From a virus (Duplodnaviria; Heunggongvirae; Uroviricota; Caudoviricetes), in IMG/VR virus record IMGVR_UViG_2909309443_000005: 12,873 nt of DNA; one strand, given 5' to 3'. The position numbers and the translations under genes are program-made. This document shows positions 2 to 10,252 of this stretch, in pieces. The notes below the pieces were generated by a model, which was given only the letters and a program-made list of their open reading frames with translations, was not told where the DNA came from and made no database searches. Position 1 is the first letter of the stretch; the number at the start of each line of letters is the position of its first letter.

Positions 2-1297
2 TTAATTTTTCATTGCTTCGTTATGGGGCATGGTTGGGGCAAACTCGCTTAACTGTGTATTTAACAAAGCTACCTGTGCATTATTGTTTTCAGACATCCA
101 TTTTCCGTATACCTGAAATACCATTTGCGCATCTGCATGGCCCATCTGGTTTGCTATAAATGCCGGGTTAGCACCAGCTGTCAGCGACCAGCAGGCATAA
201 GTATGTCTCGACTGATATGATTTTCGATGGCGGAGTCCGGCACGTTTTATCGCTGCGTCCCACATCTGCCTTATTGAGTCAACGGTAAAATGGTCACCAT
301 AATTTTTTACTCTCGCTGACACTTCAGGTTGAAAAACAAAGGTGCATTTATGTTTTTCTGTTCTGCCATACTCTCTGAGGTGAACATCAATGATATGCTC
401 TTTGCTCAGTCTCGTTAATGTCATCTGACTCCGGAGAGCGTCGATTGCTGGCTTAATAAGATGAATGACCCGATTGGTTCCCGCCTGTGTTTTTGGGACC
501 GTGAAACGGTCTTTTGCTAAATTTCTCCTGATCATCATTGTTCCATTTTTCAGATCTATGTCCTCCCATCCAAGTGCACACAGCTCACCAGGGCGAACGC
601 CAGTATAAACAGAAACACACCATAAATTTTTGGCTTGCTGATTTCTGCACGCATCGATAAGACGGATGAATTCCTCCCGCGAAAGAGGATCCGGAATGGT
701 TCTTGATTCCTTTAATGGCGAGATCCCCTTAAACGGGTTATCTGCCAGGTAACCGTTATCAACACCAAACTGGAACACGGCGTTAAGATTTGTCATGTAA
801 TTATTTACAGTTACAGCCGATCTCCCTGGTTGTGTAACAATATAGTTACTTTTGGGGATCTGGTATCCAGTCAGTAGCTCTTTACGAACCTCCAGTAATT
901 TTTCTTTATTAATCGATGAGGCAAGATTTTTTTCACCGATTATGCTCAGGATATTTTTGATGACGGCACGGTATGTGTTGAGTGATGTTTTGGCGACTTC
1001 AGTTTCTTTCAGTGCCAGAAATTTTTCAGCCAGTTCTTTTATGGTTAAATCTTGTCGGGCCTCACCAAATTTTTCCAGATTGCGTGAGGAGGGAAACTGT
1101 TTTGCATAGTCGAAAACACCAGTTTTTATTGCGTAACAAACAGAGGAGCGTAGTTCACCTGCAACGCGCCTGTTTTTTGCTGTGTCAGGAACCCCCAGAT
1201 TTTCCCTGACTCTTACGCCTTTATAAACAAACCAGATACGTAATTTCCCTCCATGGTTTTCCACGCCTGTCGGATATTTCATTTCAACTTCTCTCAT
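2..1297 (-). CDS. int: Lambdoid prophage tyrosine integrase (Rac/Qin IntR-type)
   Basis: 431-aa ORF with TAA stop at 2-4. The N-terminus (MKYPTGVE...IRIWF) and C-terminal region (RHRKSYQSRHTYACW...GANP.FIA.QMGH..AQMVF.VYGKWM) match my recollection of Rac IntR and lambda-family integrase catalytic motifs. An alternative start at ATG 1282 (MKYPTGVE) has a better SD-like GAGAGAAG upstream. The 3' end lies at the window edge, so the att site is not visible. Confidence 0.9.
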   Translation of the reverse strand: MREVEMKYPTGVENHGGKLRIWFVYKGVRVRENLGVPDTAKNRRVAGELRSSVCYAIKTGVFDYAKQFPSSRNLEKFGEARQDLTIKELAEKFLALKETEVAKTSLNTYRAVIKNILSIIGEKNLASSINKEKLLEVRKELLTGYQIPKSNYIVTQPGRSAVTVNNYMTNLNAVFQFGVDNGYLADNPFKGISPLKESRTIPDPLSREEFIRLIDACRNQQAKNLWCVSVYTGVRPGELCALGWEDIDLKNGTMMIRRNLAKDRFTVPKTQAGTNRVIHLIKPAIDALRSQMTLTRLSKEHIIDVHLREYGRTEKHKCTFVFQPEVSARVKNYGDHFTVDSIRQMWDAAIKRAGLRHRKSYQSRHTYACWSLTAGANPAFIANQMGHADAQMVFQVYGKWMSENNNAQVALLNTQLSEFAPTMPHNEAMKN

Positions 1298-1316
1298 TAG
1301 TTAGTGTGGCTTTTAG

Positions 1317-1568
1317 TCAAGTAAGATGACGTCTTGGTCTTGCTGATGCCTGGCGCTCAATCCAGCGATCAATTTCTTCCAGGTTGTAAAAGCATGGACT
1401 GTTATCCCATGGCATACCGTCATGAGCGACATGCTTATATTCCCTTCCTTCCATAAACGATTTTTCCCGGGCCTTTTTTAACGTACCTTTTTTTATTCCT
1501 TTCAGCGCAATTAACTGCTCTTCGGATACCCATTTGCCGGGAGAGACAATCATGATTACTTCGCTCAT
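1317..1568 (-). CDS. Excisionase-like small protein (Xis/DUF1233-type) upstream of int
   Basis: 83-aa ORF directly upstream of and co-oriented with int (20-bp gap). Sequence (…SPGKWVSEEQLIALKGIKKGTLKKAREKSFMEGREYKHV…) resembles lambdoid prophage excisionase-like proteins as I recall them. Position is typical for xis. Confidence 0.65.
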   Translation of the reverse strand: MSEVIMIVSPGKWVSEEQLIALKGIKKGTLKKAREKSFMEGREYKHVAHDGMPWDNSPCFYNLEEIDRWIERQASARPRRHLT

Positions 1569-1597
1569 CGATTTCTTTATCTCTTACATCAGACGAG

Positions 1598-1629
1598 CGC
1601 CGGTTGCAGAATACCAGTCACAACCGGCG
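1598..1629. repeat. Perfect 9-bp inverted repeat (CGCCGGTTG ... CAACCGGCG) with 14-nt loop, between exonuclease and xis genes
   Basis: Read directly from the sequence at 1598-1606 and 1621-1629. No U-run follows on the transcribed (minus) strand, so it is not a canonical intrinsic terminator. Confidence 0.5.
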
Positions 1630-1640
1630 ACAGTTGAACA

Positions 1641-3875
1641 TTAAGAATCAGCCTGACTCGGGATCAGTTTTTGCCAGATAGCTGAAACGTATTTTGCCTG
1701 GTAACGGGCGTCATCAAGTGCATTATGGCGCTCACCTTCGAATGGAATAGCCGTTCTGGCATCGAAGTCTATGGCTTTCCCCAGCTCAACGATTGTGCGT
1801 ACATCGCGATCGTTGTAGTAACGCCACGGGCAGGGGATCCCCTGCCGTTCGTATGAACGGCGCAAAATCGTGTTGTCGAAGTTGGCTCCATTTCCCCAGA
1901 CATGAACAAAAAATTCACCGGAGTTTTCGTCGATAAATTCCCGCAATTGTAACAGTGCATCATCTAACGGGATTTCATCGGTCATAATGGCAGATTGCGC
2001 TTCGCGTGATTGTTTAAGCCACCATTTAATGGTGTCCCGATCAATGACTCCGCCAGCAGTTTCCAGATCGATAGTCTTACTAAATTCCGGTCCCATATCT
2101 CCGGTTTGCGGATCGAAAAATATTGCACCTATTGAGATAATCGGGGCATCGGGATTTTTTCCCATGGTTTCAAGGTCGATCATCAGATGAATCCCCGCTC
2201 TGCTGGTGGATGTGAGATTATGATGACCGTTTGCCTTAATTAAGGGATCTGACGCCTCGCCAGTTTCACTATCGCTGGCATGATGCTGATTGCCGCCAGT
2301 GTTCTCCTTGTGCTGATGCGCAGTGCCTTCCATTTCCTCCGGATCATTTTCCTGAACTTCAGGCTGATTCTCTCCATCGAATATTTCCTGGTATGTTGCG
2401 TCACCCATCACCGCACCACAATCAGGGCAGTTGCCGCCACCGCTCTGACCGCAGGCGGTGCAGATCTTTTCCGGTTCCTGTTGCACTACTGGTTCAGGTT
2501 GTTTCGTTTCTGGCTCGTTTTGTTGCGTATTTGGGCTGTTTTGTTCCGCTTTCTGGTCGTTCTGTTCCGTTTCTTGCTGGTTCTGGTTCACAGAATCGCG
2601 GGTCTGGATCCCCTTAATCCATTTCGGATCATTCGGGTCGCTAATCCCTTCAACAAATTCACCACGTGATACTGCAAGCAGTTCATCGGCGTCAGGCTGG
2701 CTGATATTGGCTGCCTGCATAATTTTGTTTACTTCGTCAGCGGTAACTTTTACCGGTTCTGGCTGTGCGGTCGTGTCAGATGCACCAGTATTTTGTTGTG
2801 AACCTGAGCATGTACTGTTTTTGCGGGCGAAATATTCTTCTTTCGTGATTTCAGTAGCCCCGGCAGCCAGCGCCTTATCCAGACCAGAAAGTTTATTTGC
2901 GCGACCGTATTTTTCGCCATCCTTGTCGGTGAAGAGGAAGTAGAACGGCCCCTCACGTTCTACAGATGGTTCGACTTCCACTTTGCATTCGGTTTTTTCG
3001 TTGTCTGGAATTGCCGTTTCCACTGCATCAGTTTCTGGTACTGGCGACGAGAGAGTATCAGTTGCGCTCTGATTTGTTCCTTCATCTTCAAACACGCCCT
3101 TTGTAGTCAGGTATTCAGTAATGTATTTGTTCAGTGCCACAGGGTCTTTGTGAATGTCGATCGGACGTTCACGGACAAGGCCAAAAATAGTCTGGCGGTC
3201 GTAGCGAAGGGCATCAGGCTGTTTGCGCATTGATGCCGAGATACGCTTCCAGTCTTCGCGGTCGTTGTCGATAACTTCATTTTTTGCCCAGCGATGGATG
3301 CTGCCGTCAATGTTTCCGGCATCCACATCACCAGGCCAGAGAGCGTAGGCCAGTTCGTCATCCAGTGTTTTCCATGTCTGCTTGTATTCGCGATGAATGG
3401 CAGCAATGACCGGGTTGATTTTTCCTGTTGAATTTTCAGTGTGCTGTTGATTGGCTCTGGCGCGGGCGAGATCAACAACAGACGTGTATTTTCCGGCTTC
3501 CTTGCGTTCACCTTCGCGACGTTTTTTCCAGATGCGCATCTCTGTCTGAATTTCGGGCCATTTGGCACCAGGCTTACATTTATGCTTAACCCACCCGATG
3601 GCATGCAGCTTAAGCTCCGGATACATAGCGTTAACTTCTGGCATTTTCATCAACGCTTCAACGATATGGCCGTCGAATGTTGCCATGTCTTCCTGCAACA
3701 ATTCCTGTGCGCTAATCACCATATCAACAGTGATGTTTTCACATGTGTCGAACTTAACCATGACAGCGTTCTGTACTTCAGGGGCTAGGTTGTCAAAAGT
3801 GACGTTCATCGGATCGGATTCAGTCTCGACCGGGACAAAGGAAGCAGACGCCTCATCCCAGCGGTTTTCCTGCAT
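1641..3875 (-). CDS. Phage early-region exonuclease with C-terminal DEDDh (DnaQ-like) 3'-5' exonuclease domain
   Basis: 744-aa ORF. The C-terminal ~190 aa carry DEDDh motifs (MIDLETMG; HVWGNGANFDNTIL; HNALDDARYQAKY). The middle has a Q/E/P-rich low-complexity linker and a C-x2-C-x7-C-x2-C zinc-ribbon-like motif (CTACGQSGGGNCPDCG). ATG at 3873-3875 with in-frame stops upstream at 3921-3923 and 3942-3944. Confidence 0.8.
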   Translation of the reverse strand: MQENRWDEASASFVPVETESDPMNVTFDNLAPEVQNAVMVKFDTCENITVDMVISAQELLQEDMATFDGHIVEALMKMPEVNAMYPELKLHAIGWVKHKCKPGAKWPEIQTEMRIWKKRREGERKEAGKYTSVVDLARARANQQHTENSTGKINPVIAAIHREYKQTWKTLDDELAYALWPGDVDAGNIDGSIHRWAKNEVIDNDREDWKRISASMRKQPDALRYDRQTIFGLVRERPIDIHKDPVALNKYITEYLTTKGVFEDEGTNQSATDTLSSPVPETDAVETAIPDNEKTECKVEVEPSVEREGPFYFLFTDKDGEKYGRANKLSGLDKALAAGATEITKEEYFARKNSTCSGSQQNTGASDTTAQPEPVKVTADEVNKIMQAANISQPDADELLAVSRGEFVEGISDPNDPKWIKGIQTRDSVNQNQQETEQNDQKAEQNSPNTQQNEPETKQPEPVVQQEPEKICTACGQSGGGNCPDCGAVMGDATYQEIFDGENQPEVQENDPEEMEGTAHQHKENTGGNQHHASDSETGEASDPLIKANGHHNLTSTSRAGIHLMIDLETMGKNPDAPIISIGAIFFDPQTGDMGPEFSKTIDLETAGGVIDRDTIKWWLKQSREAQSAIMTDEIPLDDALLQLREFIDENSGEFFVHVWGNGANFDNTILRRSYERQGIPCPWRYYNDRDVRTIVELGKAIDFDARTAIPFEGERHNALDDARYQAKYVSAIWQKLIPSQADS

Positions 3876-3944
3876 ATATTCAGCATCCCAGGAATCGAGG
3901 GCAGGGCGGGGTATACCGGGTTTATCCTCGCAAACAAGAAATTT

Positions 3945-4103
3945 ATAAGCGCAGTCCTGAGCAGCCGGATAATGTTCCAGGAATTGCCAGTGAAATTTTG
4001 CGCGGGCGCGACGTTCATCACCGGCTTCAATGGCAGTGGCTACAGTGACGGCACCTTCTTCCTTTATTGCCTGTTCGTCCGGAATGGCGGCGCAAATAAA
4101 GAC
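3945..4103 (-). pseudogene. Possible 3'-terminal remnant (53 codons, no start) of an upstream early gene truncated by IS3
   Basis: Minus-strand frame is open from the IS3 left boundary (4103) down to a TAA at 3942-3944 and reads VFICAAIPDEQAIKEEGAVTVATAIEAGDERRARAKFHWQFLEHYPAASGLRL. Protein-like composition but no start codon, and no family recognised. Confidence 0.3.
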
Positions 4104-4159
4104 TGATCTTACCCAGCAATAGTGGACACGCGGCTAAGTGAGTAAACTCTCAGTCAGAG

Positions 4160-4468
4160 GTGACTCACATGACAAAAACAGTATCAACCAGTAAAAAACC
4201 CCGTAAACAGCATTCGCCTGAATTTCGCAGTGAAGCCCTGAAGCTTGCTGAACGCATCGGTGTTACTGCCGCAGCCCGTGAACTCAGCCTGTATGAATCA
4301 CAACTCTACAACTGGCGCAGTAAACAGCAAAATCAGCAGACGTCTTCTGAACGTGAACTGGAGATGTCTACCGAGATTGCACGTCTCAAACGCCAGCTGG
4401 CAGAACGGGATGAAGAGCTGGCTATCCTCCAAAAGGCCGCGACATACTTCGCGAAGCGCCTGAAATGA
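4160..4468 (+). CDS. insE: IS3 OrfA (transposase N-terminal / DNA-binding protein)
   Basis: 102-aa ORF starting [32 protein letters not shown]..., matching IS3 OrfA from memory; helix-turn-helix plus leucine-zipper-like C-terminus. Confidence 0.95.
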
Positions 4469-5331
4469 AGTATGTCTTTATTGAAAAACATCAGGCTGAG
4501 TTCAGCATCAAAGCAATGTGCCGCGTGCTCCGGGTGGCCCGCAGCGGCTGGTATACGTGGTGTCAGCGGCGGACAAGGATAAGCACGCGTCAGCAGTTCC
4601 GCCAACACTGCGACAGCGTTGTCCTCGCGGCTTTTACCCGGTCAAAACAGCGTTACGGTGCCCCACGCCTGACGGATGAACTGCGTGCTCAGGGTTACCC
4701 CTTTAACGTAAAAACCGTGGCGGCAAGCCTGCGCCGTCAGGGACTGAGGGCAAAGGCCTCCCGGAAGTTCAGCCCGGTCAGCTACCGCGCACACGGCCTG
4801 CCTGTGTCAGAAAATCTGTTGGAGCAGGATTTTTACGCCAGTGGCCCGAACCAGAAGTGGGCAGGAGACATCACGTACTTACGTACAGATGAAGGCTGGC
4901 TGTATCTGGCAGTGGTCATTGACCTGTGGTCACGTGCCGTTATTGGCTGGTCAATGTCGCCACGCATGACGGCGCAACTGGCCTGCGATGCCCTGCAGAT
5001 GGCGCTGTGGCGGCGTAAGAGGCCCCGGAACGTTATCGTTCACACGGACCGTGGAGGCCAGTACTGTTCAGCAGATTATCAGGCGCAACTGAAGCGGCAT
5101 AATCTGCGTGGAAGTATGAGCGCAAAAGGTTGCTGCTACGATAATGCCTGCGTGGAAAGCTTCTTTCATTCGCTGAAAGTGGAATGTATCCATGGAGAAC
5201 ACTTTATCAGCCGGGAAATAATGCGGGCAACGGTGTTTAATTATATCGAATGTGATTACAATCGGTGGCGGCGGCACAGTTGGTGTGGCGGCCTCAGTCC
5301 GGAACAATTTGAAAACAAGAACCTCGCTTAG
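4465..5331 (+). CDS. insF: IS3 OrfB (DDE transposase catalytic domain; expressed as OrfAB by -1 frameshift)
   Basis: 288-aa ORF overlapping the orfA stop in the -1 frame; contains DDE/rve-type residues (…WAGDITYL…[10 protein letters not shown]…SFFHSLKVE…). Confidence 0.95.
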
Positions 5332-5361
5332 GCCTGTGTCCATATTACGTGGGTAGGATCA

Positions 5362-5888
5362 TCCACCCTAAAACTATGACCAAGTATGAGATCGTCATCG
5401 TAACTACAATTGCCGTGAATATGTATGATTTGCTCGTCTGGAACGGCATAGATCTGCTGCAAGGTATTTGTATAATTAAATGAAAAATAGATGCTTTCTC
5501 TTGGTATGGGCGGGATGTATTGCTTAGGATTGTAAGCATCGGCTATGTTAATCCCTTTAACCCAATCAGCGAATTGCTCCTTCAAACGAGCTGACAGCAT
5601 TTGTGTGATTTTATTTACTTCATATTGGTAATCGTGATGATAAGCATCGCTCCAATCATCGGTATTGTATGAAGCCAAAAATATCTCACTGTTTTGAAGG
5701 ATAAGCTCATAATCAATTTCACCTAAAGCATTTTCTAACTCATTCCACTCGTCCCCAGCAGGAATGTATTCTTCTATCGCGTCATATAGATCTTGGTCAT
5801 TTTTTTCTACATACGACTTAAAGTGCTTGTATCCTGTTGGTAAGCCATGACGCATGTCAAATCCATTTCCTATTATGTAAAGCCTCAT
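5362..5888 (-). pseudogene. AbiH-like abortive-infection protein, N-terminal ~175 codons, 3'-truncated by IS3
   Basis: Minus-strand ORF from ATG 5888 (SD AAGGGA 6 nt upstream) encodes MRLYIIGNGFDMRHGLPTGYKHFKSY...SFNYTNTLQQIYAVPDEQIIHIHGNC. The N-terminal IIGNGFD..HGL motif and the FNYT...IHIHG motif are typical of the AbiH family as I recall it. The frame runs into the IS3 right end at 5361, and the last 11 codons of the six-frame ORF (5328-5361) are IS3-derived. Confidence 0.6.
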
Positions 5889-6202
5889 TGTTTTTCCCTT
5901 AGTCGAATTGTATAAAAATACTAACATGGCCTGCTCCACGTTGACTACTATCCCCTCCTTTGAGTAATGCCTTCATCAGATGTAACAACATTTGCGAGCT
6001 TCCACAGTTCGCTCAAAGCGGACTAGAAGGTTAGCTTGCGTCGGACTTGGCGTATTTAAAGAAGTGCTGGTGGAGACTGGTTGTTGTGTTCCATTTCTAC
6101 AGAACAAAATCACAGAAACTATACCCAATAGTTATATTGAATCAATGATGAGACAGCCTCATATTTATCAGGACTGGTGTACGTCCAATACAGGAGGTTG
6201 TC

Positions 6203-6292
6203 GTGCTGGTTCTCAAATGTGCGCTAGCTATTGCGGCTGTAATGGCAATTTATTGTCTTGCTGTTGTTCTTACGGATCGCCTTTCTGATTGA
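6203..6292 (+). CDS. Hypothetical 29-aa hydrophobic peptide (GTG start): MLVLKCALAIAAVMAIYCLAVVLTDRLSD
   Basis: Consensus SD AGGAGG (6192-6197) with 5-nt spacer to GTG 6203; the frame is open for 29 codons to TGA 6290-6292. The peptide is one predicted transmembrane helix with a short polar tail. Absent from the ORF track because of the GTG start. Could be a chance ORF. Confidence 0.25.
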   Translation: MLVLKCALAIAAVMAIYCLAVVLTDRLSD

Positions 6293-6299
6293 TTTTATA

Positions 6300-6328
6300 T
6301 TGGCGAGGTGACGTGAGTTAAGTAGAAT
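6300..6328 (+). promoter_or_regulatory. Putative sigma70 promoter for mok/hok mRNA (-35 TTGGCG, 17-bp spacer, -10 TAGAAT)
   Basis: Sequence-based hexamer match about 120 nt upstream of the mok start, consistent with the long structured leader of hok-family mRNAs. Not experimentally anchored. Confidence 0.3.
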
Positions 6329-6369
6329 TGCTGCGGGTGCTTGAGGCTATCTGCCTCAGGCATGAACAC

Positions 6370-6460
6370 CAAAGGCAGATAGAGAAAAGCCCCAGTTAAC
6401 ATTACGCGTCCTGCAAGACGCTTAACATTAATCTGAGGCCAATTTCATGCTAGACACATG
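6370..6460 (-). ncRNA. Putative Sok-type antisense RNA region (approximate, inferred by analogy)
   Basis: In hok/sok loci Sok is transcribed antisense across the mok translation-initiation region. A weak candidate promoter on the minus strand (-35 TTGCCT at 6486-6491, -10 TAACCT at 6463-6468 in plus coordinates) is the only sequence support. Boundaries are guesses. Confidence 0.25.
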
Positions 6461-6659
6461 TAGGTTAGCCTCTTACGTGCCGAAAGGCAAGGAGAAGCAG
6501 GCTATGAAGCAGCAAAAGGCGATGTTAATCGCCCTGATCGTCATCTGTTTAACCGTCATAGTGACGGCACTGGTAACGAGGAAAGACCTCTGCGAGGTAC
6601 GAATCCGAACCGGCCAGACGGAGGTCGCTGTCTTCACAGCTTACGAACCTGAGGAGTAA
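6447..6659 (+). CDS. Mok (modulator of killing) reading frame, in-frame N-terminal extension of Hok
   Basis: ATG 6447 preceded by GAGG. The 70-aa product MLDTCRLASYVPKGKEKQA-MKQQKAM... has the same architecture as chromosomal MokC of K-12, as I recall it. Confidence 0.6.
   Translation: MLDTCRLASYVPKGKEKQAMKQQKAMLIALIVICLTVIVTALVTRKDLCEVRIRTGQTEVAVFTAYEPEE
6504..6659 (+). CDS. hokD: Hok/Gef-family type I toxin (HokD/RelF-like), 51 aa
   Basis: MKQQKAMLIALIVICLTVIVTALVTRKDLCEVRIRTGQTEVAVFTAYEPEE matches my recollection of E. coli HokD (RelF) and is close to HokC/Gef. SD AAGGAG lies 9 nt upstream of ATG 6504. A GC stem-loop (GGCGAGGG...CCCTCGCC, 6667-6688) follows the stop. Confidence 0.9.
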   Translation: MKQQKAMLIALIVICLTVIVTALVTRKDLCEVRIRTGQTEVAVFTAYEPEE

Positions 6660-6728
6660 GAGACCAGGCGAGGGAGAAATCCCTCGCCACCTCTGATGTG
6701 TCAGGCATCCTCAATGCACCCGCACTTA

Positions 6729-6752
6729 ACCCGCTTCGGCGGGTTTATTTTA
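6729..6752 (+). terminator. Intrinsic terminator downstream of hok (CCCGC-TTCG-GCGGG hairpin plus T-rich tail)
   Basis: Stem 6730-6734 / 6739-6743 with a GNRA-like TTCG loop, followed by TTTATTTT at 6744-6751. Confidence 0.6.
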
Positions 6753-7117
6753 TCTGTAAATATTTTTATAAAAATAATGCCCACACACAGCATAAAACAA
6801 AAAGTATCACAGATAAAAAAGGAGCGTAATGTGCAGATTTGTTGTTTTCCATATTTACTCACTTTAACATAATCAATATTGATATGGTTGTTGTTTTGGT
6901 GGTTTCAAACGAGATGTTATGGTGATCTGGTAAAATTGCATAACATTAAAATTTAATTTATCTAATCGCTTTTAATAATAAGCGTTGTGTTTATCCCAAC
7001 AATCTGTTGTTTGACTTTTATTCCATTAATGTAGGGGCTTTACACTGGAACCAGTTTATTTATACTTTATACGCCAGCCTGAACAACTGGCACCTGCTGC
7101 GCCAGCAGAGACAACCG

Positions 7118-7396
7118 ATGGCGCACGATACCAAATTACACAATTCTGATGATTCTGCCGTCTTTGCCAGCAGGTGCGGACGGCGTTTTCATGCATTCAA
7201 ATCGGACTGGTTCCAGCATCCACCATGCACTGAAGAGCAGGCTGAATGGATAATTCAGTGTTACCGCAGGCGCGGATACGAGGTTAAAAAAGCCCTTAGC
7301 CTCGACTACCGTCACTGGATAATCTCAGTCAGATTGCCTTACTCCGAACGCCCACCGCGTCCGTCCCGTACATTCCAGCAACGCCTCTGGAGGTAA
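7118..7396 (+). CDS. rem: Rem-like small prophage protein
   Basis: ORF from ATG 7118 (MAHDTKLHNSDDSAVFASRCGRRFHAFKSDWFQHPPC...), 92 aa, immediately upstream of ydfU as in K-12 Qin. The six-frame ORF begins at TTG 7007 with no supporting SD. Identity rests on synteny and recall. Confidence 0.55.
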   Translation: MAHDTKLHNSDDSAVFASRCGRRFHAFKSDWFQHPPCTEEQAEWIIQCYRRRGYEVKKALSLDYRHWIISVRLPYSERPPRPSRTFQQRLWR

Positions 7397-7397
7397 C

Positions 7398-8447
7398 GTG
7401 CGGGTATTACTTCGACCTGTTCTGGTACCGGAACTCGGGCTGGTGGTCGTTAAGCCGGGCCGTGAATCCATGCCGGTATTCCACAATACCCGGGTACTGG
7501 TGGAGCCGGAACCGAAAAGCATGCGTAATCTGCCGTCCGGGGTCGTTCCTGCCGTTCGCCAGCCGCTGGTGGAAGACAAAACATTGCTGCCGTTTTTCAG
7601 TAACGCACGGGTAATTCGTGCTGCTGGTGGTGCTGGTGCATTGTCTGACTGGCTGTTGCGCCATATTAAATCCTGCCAGTGGCCACACGGCGATTATCAT
7701 CACAGCGAAACCGTTATTCACCGATATGGTACCGGCGCAATGGTGTTGTGCTGGCACTGCGACAACCAGCTGCGTGACCAGACATCCGAATCACTCGAGC
7801 AACTTGCTCATCAAAACCTGTCAGCATGGATGATTGACGTCATCGGTCACGCAATAAGCGGTACGCAGGAGCGTGAATTATCTCTGGCTGAATTATCCTG
7901 GTGGGCGGTCCGCAATCAGCTGGCGGACGCGCTACCGGAAGCGGTATTACGTCGCTCGCTGGGATTACCAGCGGAAAAAATCTGCTCGGTGTACCGCGAA
8001 AGCGACATCGTACCGGGAGAGCAGACCGCCACCAGCATATTGAAACAGCGCACAAAAAATCTTGCACCGTTGCCTCACGCCCACCAGCAACAAAACCCAT
8101 CACAGGAAAAGACGGTGGTAAGCATCACCGTTGATCCAGAGTCTCCGGAATCTTTCATGAAGCTGCCTAAACGTCACCGGTGGGTTAAGGAGAAATACAC
8201 ACGCTGGGTTAAGACACAGCCGTGTGCTTGCTGCGGTATGCCAGCCGACGATCCGCATCATCTGATTGGTCACGGGCAGGGCGGAATGGGAACCAAAGCA
8301 CATGATCTCTTTGTTTTGCCTTTGTGCAGAAAGCATCACGACGAGTTGCATACGGATACCGTGGCATTTGAAGAGAAGTATGGCTCCCAACTGGAGCTGA
8401 TTTTTCGATTTATCGATCGCGCGCTGGCAATTGGTGTGCTGGCCTAA
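7398..8447 (+). CDS. ydfU: YdfU-like DUF968 protein with C-terminal HNH-like Cys/His motif
   Basis: 349-aa ORF with GTG start 4 nt after GGAGG and 1 nt after the rem stop (translational coupling). C-terminus carries CACCG...[10 protein letters not shown]...[11 protein letters not shown]. Matches K-12 YdfU as I recall it. Confidence 0.85.
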
Positions 8448-8464
8448 TTTTGTGGAGTAAGTTG

Positions 8465-8844
8465 ATGCGTGATATTCAGATGGTTCTTGAGCGTTGGGGG
8501 GCATGGGCGGCTAATAATCATGAAGATGTGACCTGGTCGTCCATTGCCGCCGGTTTTAAGGGATTAATTCCTTCAAAAGTAAGATCTCGTCCGCAATGCT
8601 GTGACGATGACGCGATGATCATTTGTGAATGTATGGCTCGCCTGAAAAAAAAAACAACAGCGATTTACATGATTTATTGGTGGACTATTATGTCGGCGGC
8701 ATGACTTTTATGGCGCTTGCACATAAGCATGGGCGATCTGATTGTTGGGTTGGCAGGATGCTCCAGAAAGCTGAGGGCGTAGTGGAGGGCATGCTGATGG
8801 TGTTGGATCTCCGATTGGAGATGGATGCTGATTGTTCGAAATAA
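8465..8844 (+). pseudogene. Late antiterminator Q (small QuuD/DLP12-type), disrupted by frameshift in an A10 homopolymer
   Basis: ATG 8465 (SD GGAG 8453-8456) encodes [22 protein letters not shown]...CECMARLKK up to the A10 run at 8645-8654. The frame then shifts so that a second frame (8653 onward) encodes [63 protein letters not shown]. Joined, the product is about 125 aa, the size of QuuD. With 8 or 11 As the gene would be in frame. Confidence 0.75.
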
Positions 8845-8856
8845 TTAAAGGAAAAG

Positions 8857-8892
8857 TTGCTGTCTGATTTTCATTAGTCTAACATTTTAAAT
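8857..8892 (+). promoter_or_regulatory. Candidate late promoter (PR'-like) / qut region downstream of Q
   Basis: Position is immediately 3' of Q and about 60-100 nt upstream of a strong terminator, as expected for PR'-tR'. Hexamers are weak (TTGCTG ... TAACAT, or TTGGAA ... TATCAT). Positional inference only. Confidence 0.25.
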
Positions 8893-8943
8893 GTTGGAAT
8901 CGCAACGTAGTTATTATCATATAACAGCTTGTTTCCTGATTTA

Positions 8944-8971
8944 GCCAGCCTCCCCAAAGGCTGGTTTTTTT
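8944..8971 (+). terminator. Intrinsic terminator (tR'-like): GCCAGCC-TCCCCAAA-GGCTGG(T) hairpin followed by T7
   Basis: Stem 8944-8950 / 8959-8965 and T-run 8965-8971, read directly from the sequence. Confidence 0.6.
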
Positions 8972-9189
8972 CTAATAAGTATCATTTCGGGTGGGGATTT
9001 TATTGTTTAACCCATAATAGTTCATTGACATTGAATCCCAACTTTTGAGCGGTACGCACATAGTCTGCTTTTACATTATCTGGAATAGTTTGGGTCCTTG
9101 CCAGAATCCATAGGTATTCTCTGTTCGGACCACTGGTGATGCTGCCAACTTACTGATTTAGTGTATGATGGTGTTTTTGAGGTGCTCCA

Positions 9190-9465
9190 GTGGCTTCTGT
9201 TTCTATCAGCTGTCCCTCCTGTTCAGCTACTGACGGGGTGGTGCGTAACGGCAAAAGCACCGCCGGACATCAGCGCTATCTCTGCTCTCACTGCCGTAAA
9301 ACATGGCAACTGCAGTTCACTTACACCGCTTCTCAACCCGGTACGCACCAGAAAATCATTGATATGGCCATGAATGGCGTTGGATGCCGGGCAACTGCCC
9401 GCATTATGGGCGTTGGCCTCAACACGGTTTTACGTCACTTAAAAAACTCAGGCCGCAGTCGGTAA
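9190..9465 (+). CDS. insA: IS1 InsA
   Basis: 91-aa [48 protein letters not shown]..., matching IS1 InsA from memory. Confidence 0.95.
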
Positions 9466-9887
9466 CCTCGCGCATACAACCGGGCAGTGATGTGATTGTC
9501 TGCGCGGAAATGGACGAACAGTGGGGCTACGTCGGTGCTAAATCACGTCAGCGCTGGCTGTTTTACGCGTATGACAGGATACGGAGGACAGTTGTGGCGC
9601 ACGTTTTCGGTGAACGCACTCTGGCCACACTGGCGCGTCTTCTGAGCCTGCTGTCGGCCTTTGAGGTCGTGGTATGGATGACGGATGGCTGGCCGCTGTA
9701 TGAATCCCGCCTGAAGGGAAAGCTGCACGTTATCAGCAAGCGTTACACTCAGCGCATTGAGCGACATAATCTGAATCTGAGACAACATCTGGCAAGGCTG
9801 GGACGGAAGTTACTGTCGTTCTCAAAATCGGTGGAGCTGCATGACAAGGTCATCGGGCATTATCTGAACATAAAACACTATCAGTAA
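9384..9887 (+). CDS. insB: IS1 InsB' frame (transposase InsAB' made by -1 frameshift from insA)
   Basis: 167-aa ORF in the -1 frame relative to insA, overlapping it around the A6C motif. Confidence 0.9.
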
Positions 9888-9902
9888 GTTGGAGTCACTA
9901 CC

Positions 9903-10252
9903 ATTACTTGCATCATCATTTTTCCTGTTGGACTGGTCAGGTCAATGCCACCCAATGCTAAGCAATGCACTCTGATACCTGTTTCGGTCAGTTGTTCCAC
10001 TGTTTTCCTGATATCCATTGCATTACAACCAAGGCGATCCAGTTTTGTCACAATCAATTGATCACCACATTTCAGGCGAGCAAGCAACCGGTTAAAACCA
10101 GGACGCTCACTGGTTGCTGCTGAGCCGCTAATGTGTTCTTCGATTATTTGCTGAGGTTTGATTTTAAAACCTGCACTTTCGATTTCCCGGCGTTGATTTT
10201 CGGTGGTCTGATCCAGCGTTGATATCCGACAGTAAGCAAAAATTCGAGACAT
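9903..10252 (-). pseudogene. pinQ: Pin-type serine recombinase (DNA invertase), 5' ~116 codons, 3'-truncated by IS1
   Basis: Minus-strand ORF from ATG 10252 encodes [31 protein letters not shown]...[45 protein letters not shown], a serine-recombinase catalytic domain resembling PinQ/PinR as I recall them. The frame runs into the IS1 right end, and the last codons of the six-frame ORF are IS1-derived. Confidence 0.8.

Follow-up and report, generated by a model that had tools for sequence, protein, structure and literature searches.

The DNA analysed here, called the window throughout, is a 12,873-nucleotide stretch of the Caudoviricetes record IMGVR_UViG_2909309443_000005. It contains a minus-strand ORF that starts at ATG 5888, behind an AAGGG motif and a 7-nt spacer, and runs into the right terminal repeat of an IS3 element at 5361. 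The native part of this ORF encodes the first 61% of an AbiH-family protein that is Sir2-like and, when complete, 289 aa long. The ORF and its surroundings comprise the following features:

1641..4103, minus strand: prophage exonuclease gene at the left deletion junction, with codons 1-3 (MSK) and the upstream DNA gone
4104..5361, plus strand: complete IS3, 1258 bp, with orfA, orfB and inverted repeats
5328..5361, minus strand: read-through tail of the abiH ORF inside the IS3 right inverted repeat, as given by translation
5362..5888, minus strand: 5′ fragment of abiH, codons 1-175 plus 2 nt of codon 176
5889..6334, between divergent genes: abiH-hokD intergenic DNA, part of the same variant-specific block
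6335..6659, plus strand: hok/sok locus, a fixed landmark beside the abiH slot
6335-6509, plus strand: sok-type regulatory region (Rfam RF01794, 119.9 bits, E = 1.9e-27)
6504-6659, plus strand: hokD, annotated

The native reading of the stub is MRLYIIGNGFDMRHG...IHIHGNCSYDDDLILGHSFRV, as far as 5362. The codon split by the junction (GA/T) encodes D and is followed by 10 more residues and a stop at 5328-5330, giving a chimeric abiH/IS3 product of 186 aa that includes an 11-residue IS3-derived tail. The same chimeric ORF carries a PGAP annotation in strain 99-3165, as a protein and not as a pseudogene. For the intact gene, the PGAP start at ATG 5927 (a 302-aa protein) was rejected in favor of ATG 5888, because the 13 extra residues are disordered in the structure model, lie beyond the Pfam and PHROG profiles and are missing from many orthologues. 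At 38.1% GC, the stub lies below the exonuclease gene (49.4%), ydfU (54.0%) and IS3 (53.6%). A separate stretch between hokD and a ydfU-like gene (6750-7050) is very AT-rich (29% GC). The intergenic DNA at 5889..6334 is without K-12 homology and presumably holds the abiH promoter; a scan for this promoter returned 5 promoter-like hits, no excess over the 3.2 ± 2.0 found in shuffled sequence.

The 175-aa stub matched the Pfam AbiH family (PF14253) with an E value of 8.6e-48 and 164.1 bits, where the curated gathering score is 30.9 bits. The match covers only profile positions 1-182 of 260, so the stub lacks a complete domain. An intact allele from other E. coli genomes scored 233.3 bits (E = 6.6e-69) and covered positions 1-258 of the same 260, as well as positions 1-288 of 288 in phrog_19951. 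The PADLOC AbiH model (PDLC02345) was matched by the stub at 3.9e-20 and by the intact allele at 1.3e-27, with the best stretch confined to model positions 143-211 of 343. This narrow alignment indicates a distant relationship between the 289-aa form and the longer lactococcal prototype of 346 aa. In RefSeq, the AbiH family name is already attached to the stub as well as to the intact allele.

These results bear on several claims of the initial annotation, which was made from the sequence alone. Its AbiH-like assignment, its account of an ORF that starts at ATG 5888 behind a good Shine-Dalgarno sequence and enters the IS3 repeat, and its remark that the DNA is more AT-rich than the neighboring phage genes (which span 49.4-54.0% GC) all hold. 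The coordinates of the reading were also right, but the quoted protein sequence ends at ...IHIHGNC and 16 more native residues precede the junction. The proposed size was wrong: a protein of 350-400 aa with about half missing had been expected, and the intact protein, read from the ATG equivalent to 5888, is 289 aa long, of which 175 residues (61%) survive and 114 (39%) are lost. A length of exactly 289 aa recurs in many orthologues from Klebsiella, Providencia, Dickeya and Pantoea.

The AbiH of Lactococcus lactis biovar diacetylactis S94 (Prevots et al. 1996) is the founder of PF14253 as well as of the PADLOC and DefenseFinder “AbiH” models. It shares a Pfam family with the E. coli protein, whose match is well over threshold, and both are carried on mobile elements. 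They differ in size (346 versus 289 aa), in host, in phages and in the prophage location; the PADLOC model, which is based on the prototype, aligns strongly with the E. coli protein over the central 70 positions only, and what the window contains is a truncated pseudogene. The same Sir2-like fold is predicted for the lactococcal protein (PMC13064643), which works as a single gene (PMC13064643). A Vibrio AbiH likewise acts as a single gene; its protection amounts to 5.7 logs, and two small phage proteins inhibit it (bioRxiv 10.1101/2024.06.14.598830).

The annotated loci, the K-12 Qin map and the blastn blocks share the gene order int-xis-exo ... hokD-ydfU-ydfT ... ydfK, which identifies the element as a Qin-like lambdoid cryptic prophage of E. 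coli, located between rspB and ydfJ. A tblastn search of 50,697 sequenced phage records gave no abiH match, so the statement that abiH is carried by a prophage derives from this cryptic-prophage context only. The K-12 Qin prophage has the order ydfU, rem, hokD, relE, relB, ydfV, flxA, ydfW, ydfX, dicC, dicA. On the hokD side, K-12 homology starts at window position 6490, 14 nt before the hokD ATG, and the DNA on from that point, abiH included, is variant-specific. Thus, abiH adjoins hokD where relE-relB-ydfV-flxA sit in K-12, and the flanking genes ydfU, ydfT, dicB and ydfD are shared. The cargo is unrelated: a type II toxin-antitoxin pair with ydfV and flxA in K-12, versus abiH and a gene for a 463-aa protein in this variant. 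Orientation also differs, as relBE is co-directional with hokD in K-12 and abiH is divergent from it here. The sok region is present in this variant and absent beside the K-12 hokD, because relBE replaced it. The prophage carries abiH as an AT-rich moron beside hokD.

Elsewhere in the window, an IS1 (InsA/InsB ORFs 9190-9887) lies within about 8450-10252, where blastn against two reference loci (L001 and L002) confines the inserted block to about 8448-9902. Both an antiterminator-like gene starting at 8450 and, on the minus strand, a pin-type invertase (9881-10252) are truncated by it. Strain 99-3165 instead has an IS1 directly after hokD, and IS1-associated deletions therefore differ between near-identical genomes.

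The IS3 beside abiH has the features of its group: a length of 1258 bp, imperfect 39-nt terminal inverted repeats with TG...CA ends (4104-4142 and 5323-5361), and intact, overlapping orfA (4160-4468) and orfB (4465-5331), an overlap that serves a −1 frameshift. In strain 99-3165, which has an identical locus, it is annotated as an IS3-like element IS3 family transposase. Its right end adjoins abiH exactly at 5361/5362, within codon 176. A simple IS3 insertion leaves a 3-bp direct repeat, and there is none around this copy: the left flank ends in ...aaagac and the right flank begins with tccacc..., that is, gac on the left and tcc on the right. The lack of a matching target duplication indicates that this was not a simple insertion.

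A blastn comparison with the probiotic strain G3/10 (locus L002) revealed what lies on the two sides. Window positions 1966-4104 correspond to L002 1-2139 at 96.2% identity and positions 5362-8447 to L002 9001-12086 at 99.6%, with IS3 in place of L002 2140-9000. The missing DNA measures 6861 bp relative to G3/10, which, with no more than 96.2% identity on the exonuclease side, serves as a reference and not as the exact progenitor. Strains 503829, 503025 and others were also rejected as progenitors; they have a different IS3-family element elsewhere in the exonuclease gene and an intact abiH, and so have no link to this event. The gene order in G3/10 is exonuclease, ydfD, dicB, ydfB′, ydfA, cI-like, cro-like, ydaT, a replication gene, DUF977, a 463-aa hypothetical protein and abiH, followed by the divergent hokD, ydfU and ydfT. 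The DNA lost from the window thus includes abiH codons 176-289, the 463-aa orphan gene, the DUF977, replication, ydaT, cI/cro-like, ydfA, dicB and ydfD genes, and the first three exonuclease codons. The start of the exonuclease reads VFICAAIPDE... in the window and MSKVFICAAIPDE... in G3/10. PGAP gives the equivalent of this exonuclease an internal start codon other than ATG and annotates it as an intact protein of 818 aa. Intact abiH occupies L002 8658-9527 in G3/10, and its neighbor that is deleted from the window maps there as:

L002 7177-8568, minus strand: 463-aa orphan gene, directly downstream of intact abiH in strain G3/10 and deleted from the window

From these junctions we infer one of two origins for the structure: an adjacent deletion mediated by IS3, or recombination of one IS3 copy with another. 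Such events in cryptic prophages leave a single IS with non-matching flanks and the DNA between lost, as is seen here; compared with known IS-mediated deletions, the event in the window has nothing unusual.

A megablast search of 5362-6450 against 5426 complete E. coli genomes found the whole stretch in 91, many at 100% identity. An intact abiH occurs in G3/10 and about 65 other complete genomes at the same hokD-proximal locus, with 100% identity over 5362-6450; the stub itself is 100% identical to the intact alleles across 5362-5888. The identity of these alleles at one locus indicates that an ancestral intact gene was inactivated by the IS3-associated event. The abiH cassette was detected in 119 of the 5426 genomes, and 65 of these 119 carriers have at least 80% of the cassette of abiH and the 463-aa gene. 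Truncation at the exact junction of the window occurs in about 26 of the 5426, a count obtained as 91 minus 65 and consistent with 13 of 60 evenly sampled rows. Judging from strain names (O6:H16, TW10598, the E-series, FMU073332), these genomes would be largely ETEC-type strains. In eleven genomes the identity to the 12.9-kb window, over its whole length, is ≥99.8%.

Other disruptions of the gene were also found. In about 24 genomes abiH is truncated at codon 64 (junction at L002 9337), keeping 63-64 codons, and abuts another IS3-family copy in the same orientation (L016 6001-6286 in ECONIH4; L018 3994-4279 in ABWA45). In ABWA45 the deletion extends leftward to rspA, and this junction, too, resembles IS-adjacent deletions. 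The codon-64 lineage could have arisen independently, or the same IS3 could have caused another adjacent deletion. IS1 was detected in abiH at two sites, each with a 9-bp duplication (L002 9270-9278 and 9417-9425; IS1-bearing loci L017 3279-4046 and L025 3426-4193). One copy is in a full-length abiH and the other is inside the already IS3-truncated stub of an O6:H16 strain, which indicates that the stub is decaying further and argues against a retained function.

The locus comparisons allow the remaining claims about the setting to be judged. The placement in a prophage, in the slot that holds relBE in K-12 Qin, agrees with the maps, and the suggested search for an intact copy at the hok-proximal position succeeded, with 100% identical alleles in other E. 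coli. Inactivation by IS3 stands in so far as the event was IS3-associated; the gene was not simply cut in half, as its 3′ part is absent from the window and 6861 bp were replaced. Of the proposed recovery of the C-terminal part and the IS3 target, the missing 114 residues could be retrieved via G3/10, but no target duplication exists.

The 463-aa gene lies on the same strand as abiH and always 89 bp away in E. coli and Klebsiella, where the two genes also occur together in an unrelated prophage context. The protein had no match in Pfam (three sets), PADLOC, PHROGs or NCBIfam, and no PDB sequence-profile match. Its AlphaFold2 model is confident (pLDDT 84.6), and Foldseek hits in the PDB all had E > 0.29. 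An invariant G-D187...E201-x-K203 pattern is PD-(D/E)xK-like; a nuclease assignment is backed by no tool and is not claimed here. A profile search identified at least 679 clusters at 50% identity (E ≤ 1e-3). Homologues occur 16-18 bp downstream of Abi_2 in Pantoea and Rahnella, 17 bp downstream of DUF3644 in Dickeya, alone in a P2-like prophage, and without a partner beside Gabija-like genes in an Aeromonas island. Conversely, AbiH orthologues at 75%, 58% and 43% identity have other neighbors or none, and lack the 463-aa gene. An obligatory pairing was therefore rejected, as each gene is found without the other, and the more distant orthologues make it probable that AbiH is a single-gene system. 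As a lead, we regard the 463-aa family as a candidate defence gene in its own right, or perhaps as a partner that can be exchanged.

An AlphaFold2 model of the intact AbiH, built on a 41-sequence alignment, had a mean pLDDT of 86.9 and a pTM of 0.83, and the predicted model shows a Rossmann-type Sir2 fold. Its fold relatives are KomC, PsSIR2, SIR2-Avs5 and SirTM, with SAMD9 and FAM118B also related. A sequence-only PDB search with the AbiH profile returned only noise, so the Sir2 relationship required a fold search. A 2026 review describes a sirtuin-like fold for the lactococcal AbiH and proposes NAD+ depletion (PMC13064643), and a phylogenetic study places AbiH within an immune SIR2 subfamily (bioRxiv 10.1101/2024.09.18.613514); the model agrees with both. 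The SIR2 NADases ThsA (Thoeris), DSR1/DSR2, Sir2-HerA (Nezha), SIR2-Avs5 and KomC share 9-20% identity with AbiH. Unlike these defence-associated enzymes, AbiH has no fused or partnered sensor domain (SLOG, HerA, STAND). NAD+ hydrolysis is a trait of those enzymes, whereas for AbiH it is proposed only.

In the 289-aa numbering, the model has β-strands at 1-6 (β1), 133-136 (β2), 154-156 (β3), 226-232 (β4), 256-261 (β5) and 281-285 (β6). The break after V175 keeps β1-β3 and removes β4-β6 and four helices. Among the 32 invariant columns of the 41-sequence alignment, 23 fall within the stub and all of these are conserved, including G7, G9, F10, D11, H14, N138, Y139, T140, H158, G159, G170 and H171. 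The nine others (D188, K207, F220, G233, H234, S235, D240, Y243 and W257) are deleted. By motif, G7-x-G9, N138 and H158-G159 resemble the sirtuin G-x-G loop, Asn and His-Gly, and would form a putative NAD site. N138 and H158 are invariant and spaced as the Asn/His dyad is in sirtuins; motif and fold analogy suggest that they are the catalytic residues. In our reading of the motifs, G233-H234-S235 would stand where sirtuins have the G-T-S motif that binds the nucleotide. With half of its Rossmann sheet gone, the fragment is not expected to fold, and lacking β4-β6, four helices and nine invariant residues, the 186-aa chimeric product is predicted to be a non-functional pseudogene. For the intact protein, analogy with ThsA, DSR and Sir2-HerA suggests that phage infection would trigger it, and that it would then most likely destroy NAD+ and so abort infection.

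In combination, we consider it very probable that 5362-5888 is the 5′ remnant of an abiH gene in a Qin-like prophage, in which IS3 replaced 6861 bp and left a non-functional pseudogene of a protein that was likely NAD+-depleting. The sequence of events would be that an intact ancestral abiH was inactivated by the IS3-associated event in this lineage. A simple insertion, in which IS3 split abiH and left both halves in place, would account for a complete IS3 whose right end abuts abiH exactly, and IS1 does behave in this way in abiH elsewhere, with 9-bp duplications. Yet the left flank of IS3 is exonuclease codon 4 and not abiH, the 3-bp duplication is absent, and tblastn of the 114-aa AbiH C-terminus found nothing in the window at E ≤ 10, where a search for the 463-aa neighbor likewise gave only noise. 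In addition, a 143-bp chimeric query joining the abiH 3′ part to the IS3 left end matched none of the 5426 complete E. coli genomes. This reading is thus refuted for the window and extremely improbable as an explanation, and a simple insertion is possible only as a transient ancestor. Very improbable, too, is that the stub persists for some benefit, for example as a Sir2 fragment serving as decoy or regulator, or as a transcription unit out of or into IS3. Its ORF is open with a plausible ribosome-binding site, is 100% conserved in about 26 genomes and is annotated by PGAP as a protein. The stub nonetheless lacks nine invariant residues and one half of the Rossmann sheet, the carriers look clonally related (ETEC-type, with identical junctions), one of them has a further IS1 inside the stub, and another lineage keeps just 63-64 codons. 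Residual expression of the stub is conceivable; clonal descent explains its conservation.

Two further readings concern the ancestral gene. Selection against a costly abiH, for example one with NADase autotoxicity, could explain why an 870-bp gene with 119 carriers has been hit independently by ISs no fewer than three times, and probably four (codon 176 by IS3, codon 64 by an IS3-family element, and two sites by IS1), and is kept intact in only about half of its carriers. The whole cryptic prophage, however, is an IS sink, with IS1 in the antiterminator and pin genes of the window, an IS3-family element in the exonuclease gene of 503829, ISVsa5 in the 463-aa partner gene and IS2 in K-12; AT-rich DNA is a favored IS target, and the genomes are not independent samples. 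Because the prophage is riddled with other ISs, we do not read the recurrent hits as proof of selection, and regard recurrent destruction through cost rather than neutral decay as unlikely. Somewhat more open, though still doubtful, is that the ancestral unit was a two-gene defence system of AbiH and the 463-aa protein, which the IS3 deletion destroyed. The two genes, on one strand and 89 bp apart, co-travel in 65 E. coli genomes and in Klebsiella, and 463-aa homologues sit close behind Abi_2 in Pantoea and DUF3644 in Dickeya (16-18 bp). Against this, each gene occurs without the other, AbiH is a single gene in Lactococcus and Vibrio, and a gap of 89 bp is wide compared with those of the other pairs. 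The single-gene status claimed initially is accordingly likely but not certain, given that the intact allele in E. coli and Klebsiella is always accompanied by the 463-aa gene. Extending this, we tentatively raise the possibility that the 463-aa protein is a new, widespread defence component that pairs with interchangeable Abi-type genes (those found upstream of the family being Sir2-like AbiH, HEPN-type Abi_2 and DUF3644), and that the ancestral Qin cargo was an undescribed bipartite system. If so, the window would preserve only the scar of that system.

The very probable reading, an abiH remnant left by an IS3-associated deletion, makes the stub an ordinary dead gene of a known anti-phage type. 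Alone it matters little, as a further case of a defence gene lost to IS movement within a cryptic prophage. It does imply that automated counts of defence systems that accept an open ORF of 186 to 199 aa will report too many AbiH systems for ETEC-type genomes. The site next to hokD in Qin-like prophages emerges as an exchangeable cargo slot, holding relBE in K-12 and abiH with the orphan gene in this variant. The intact allele of the probiotic strain G3/10 offers a convenient E. coli AbiH for studying the proposed NAD+-depletion mechanism.
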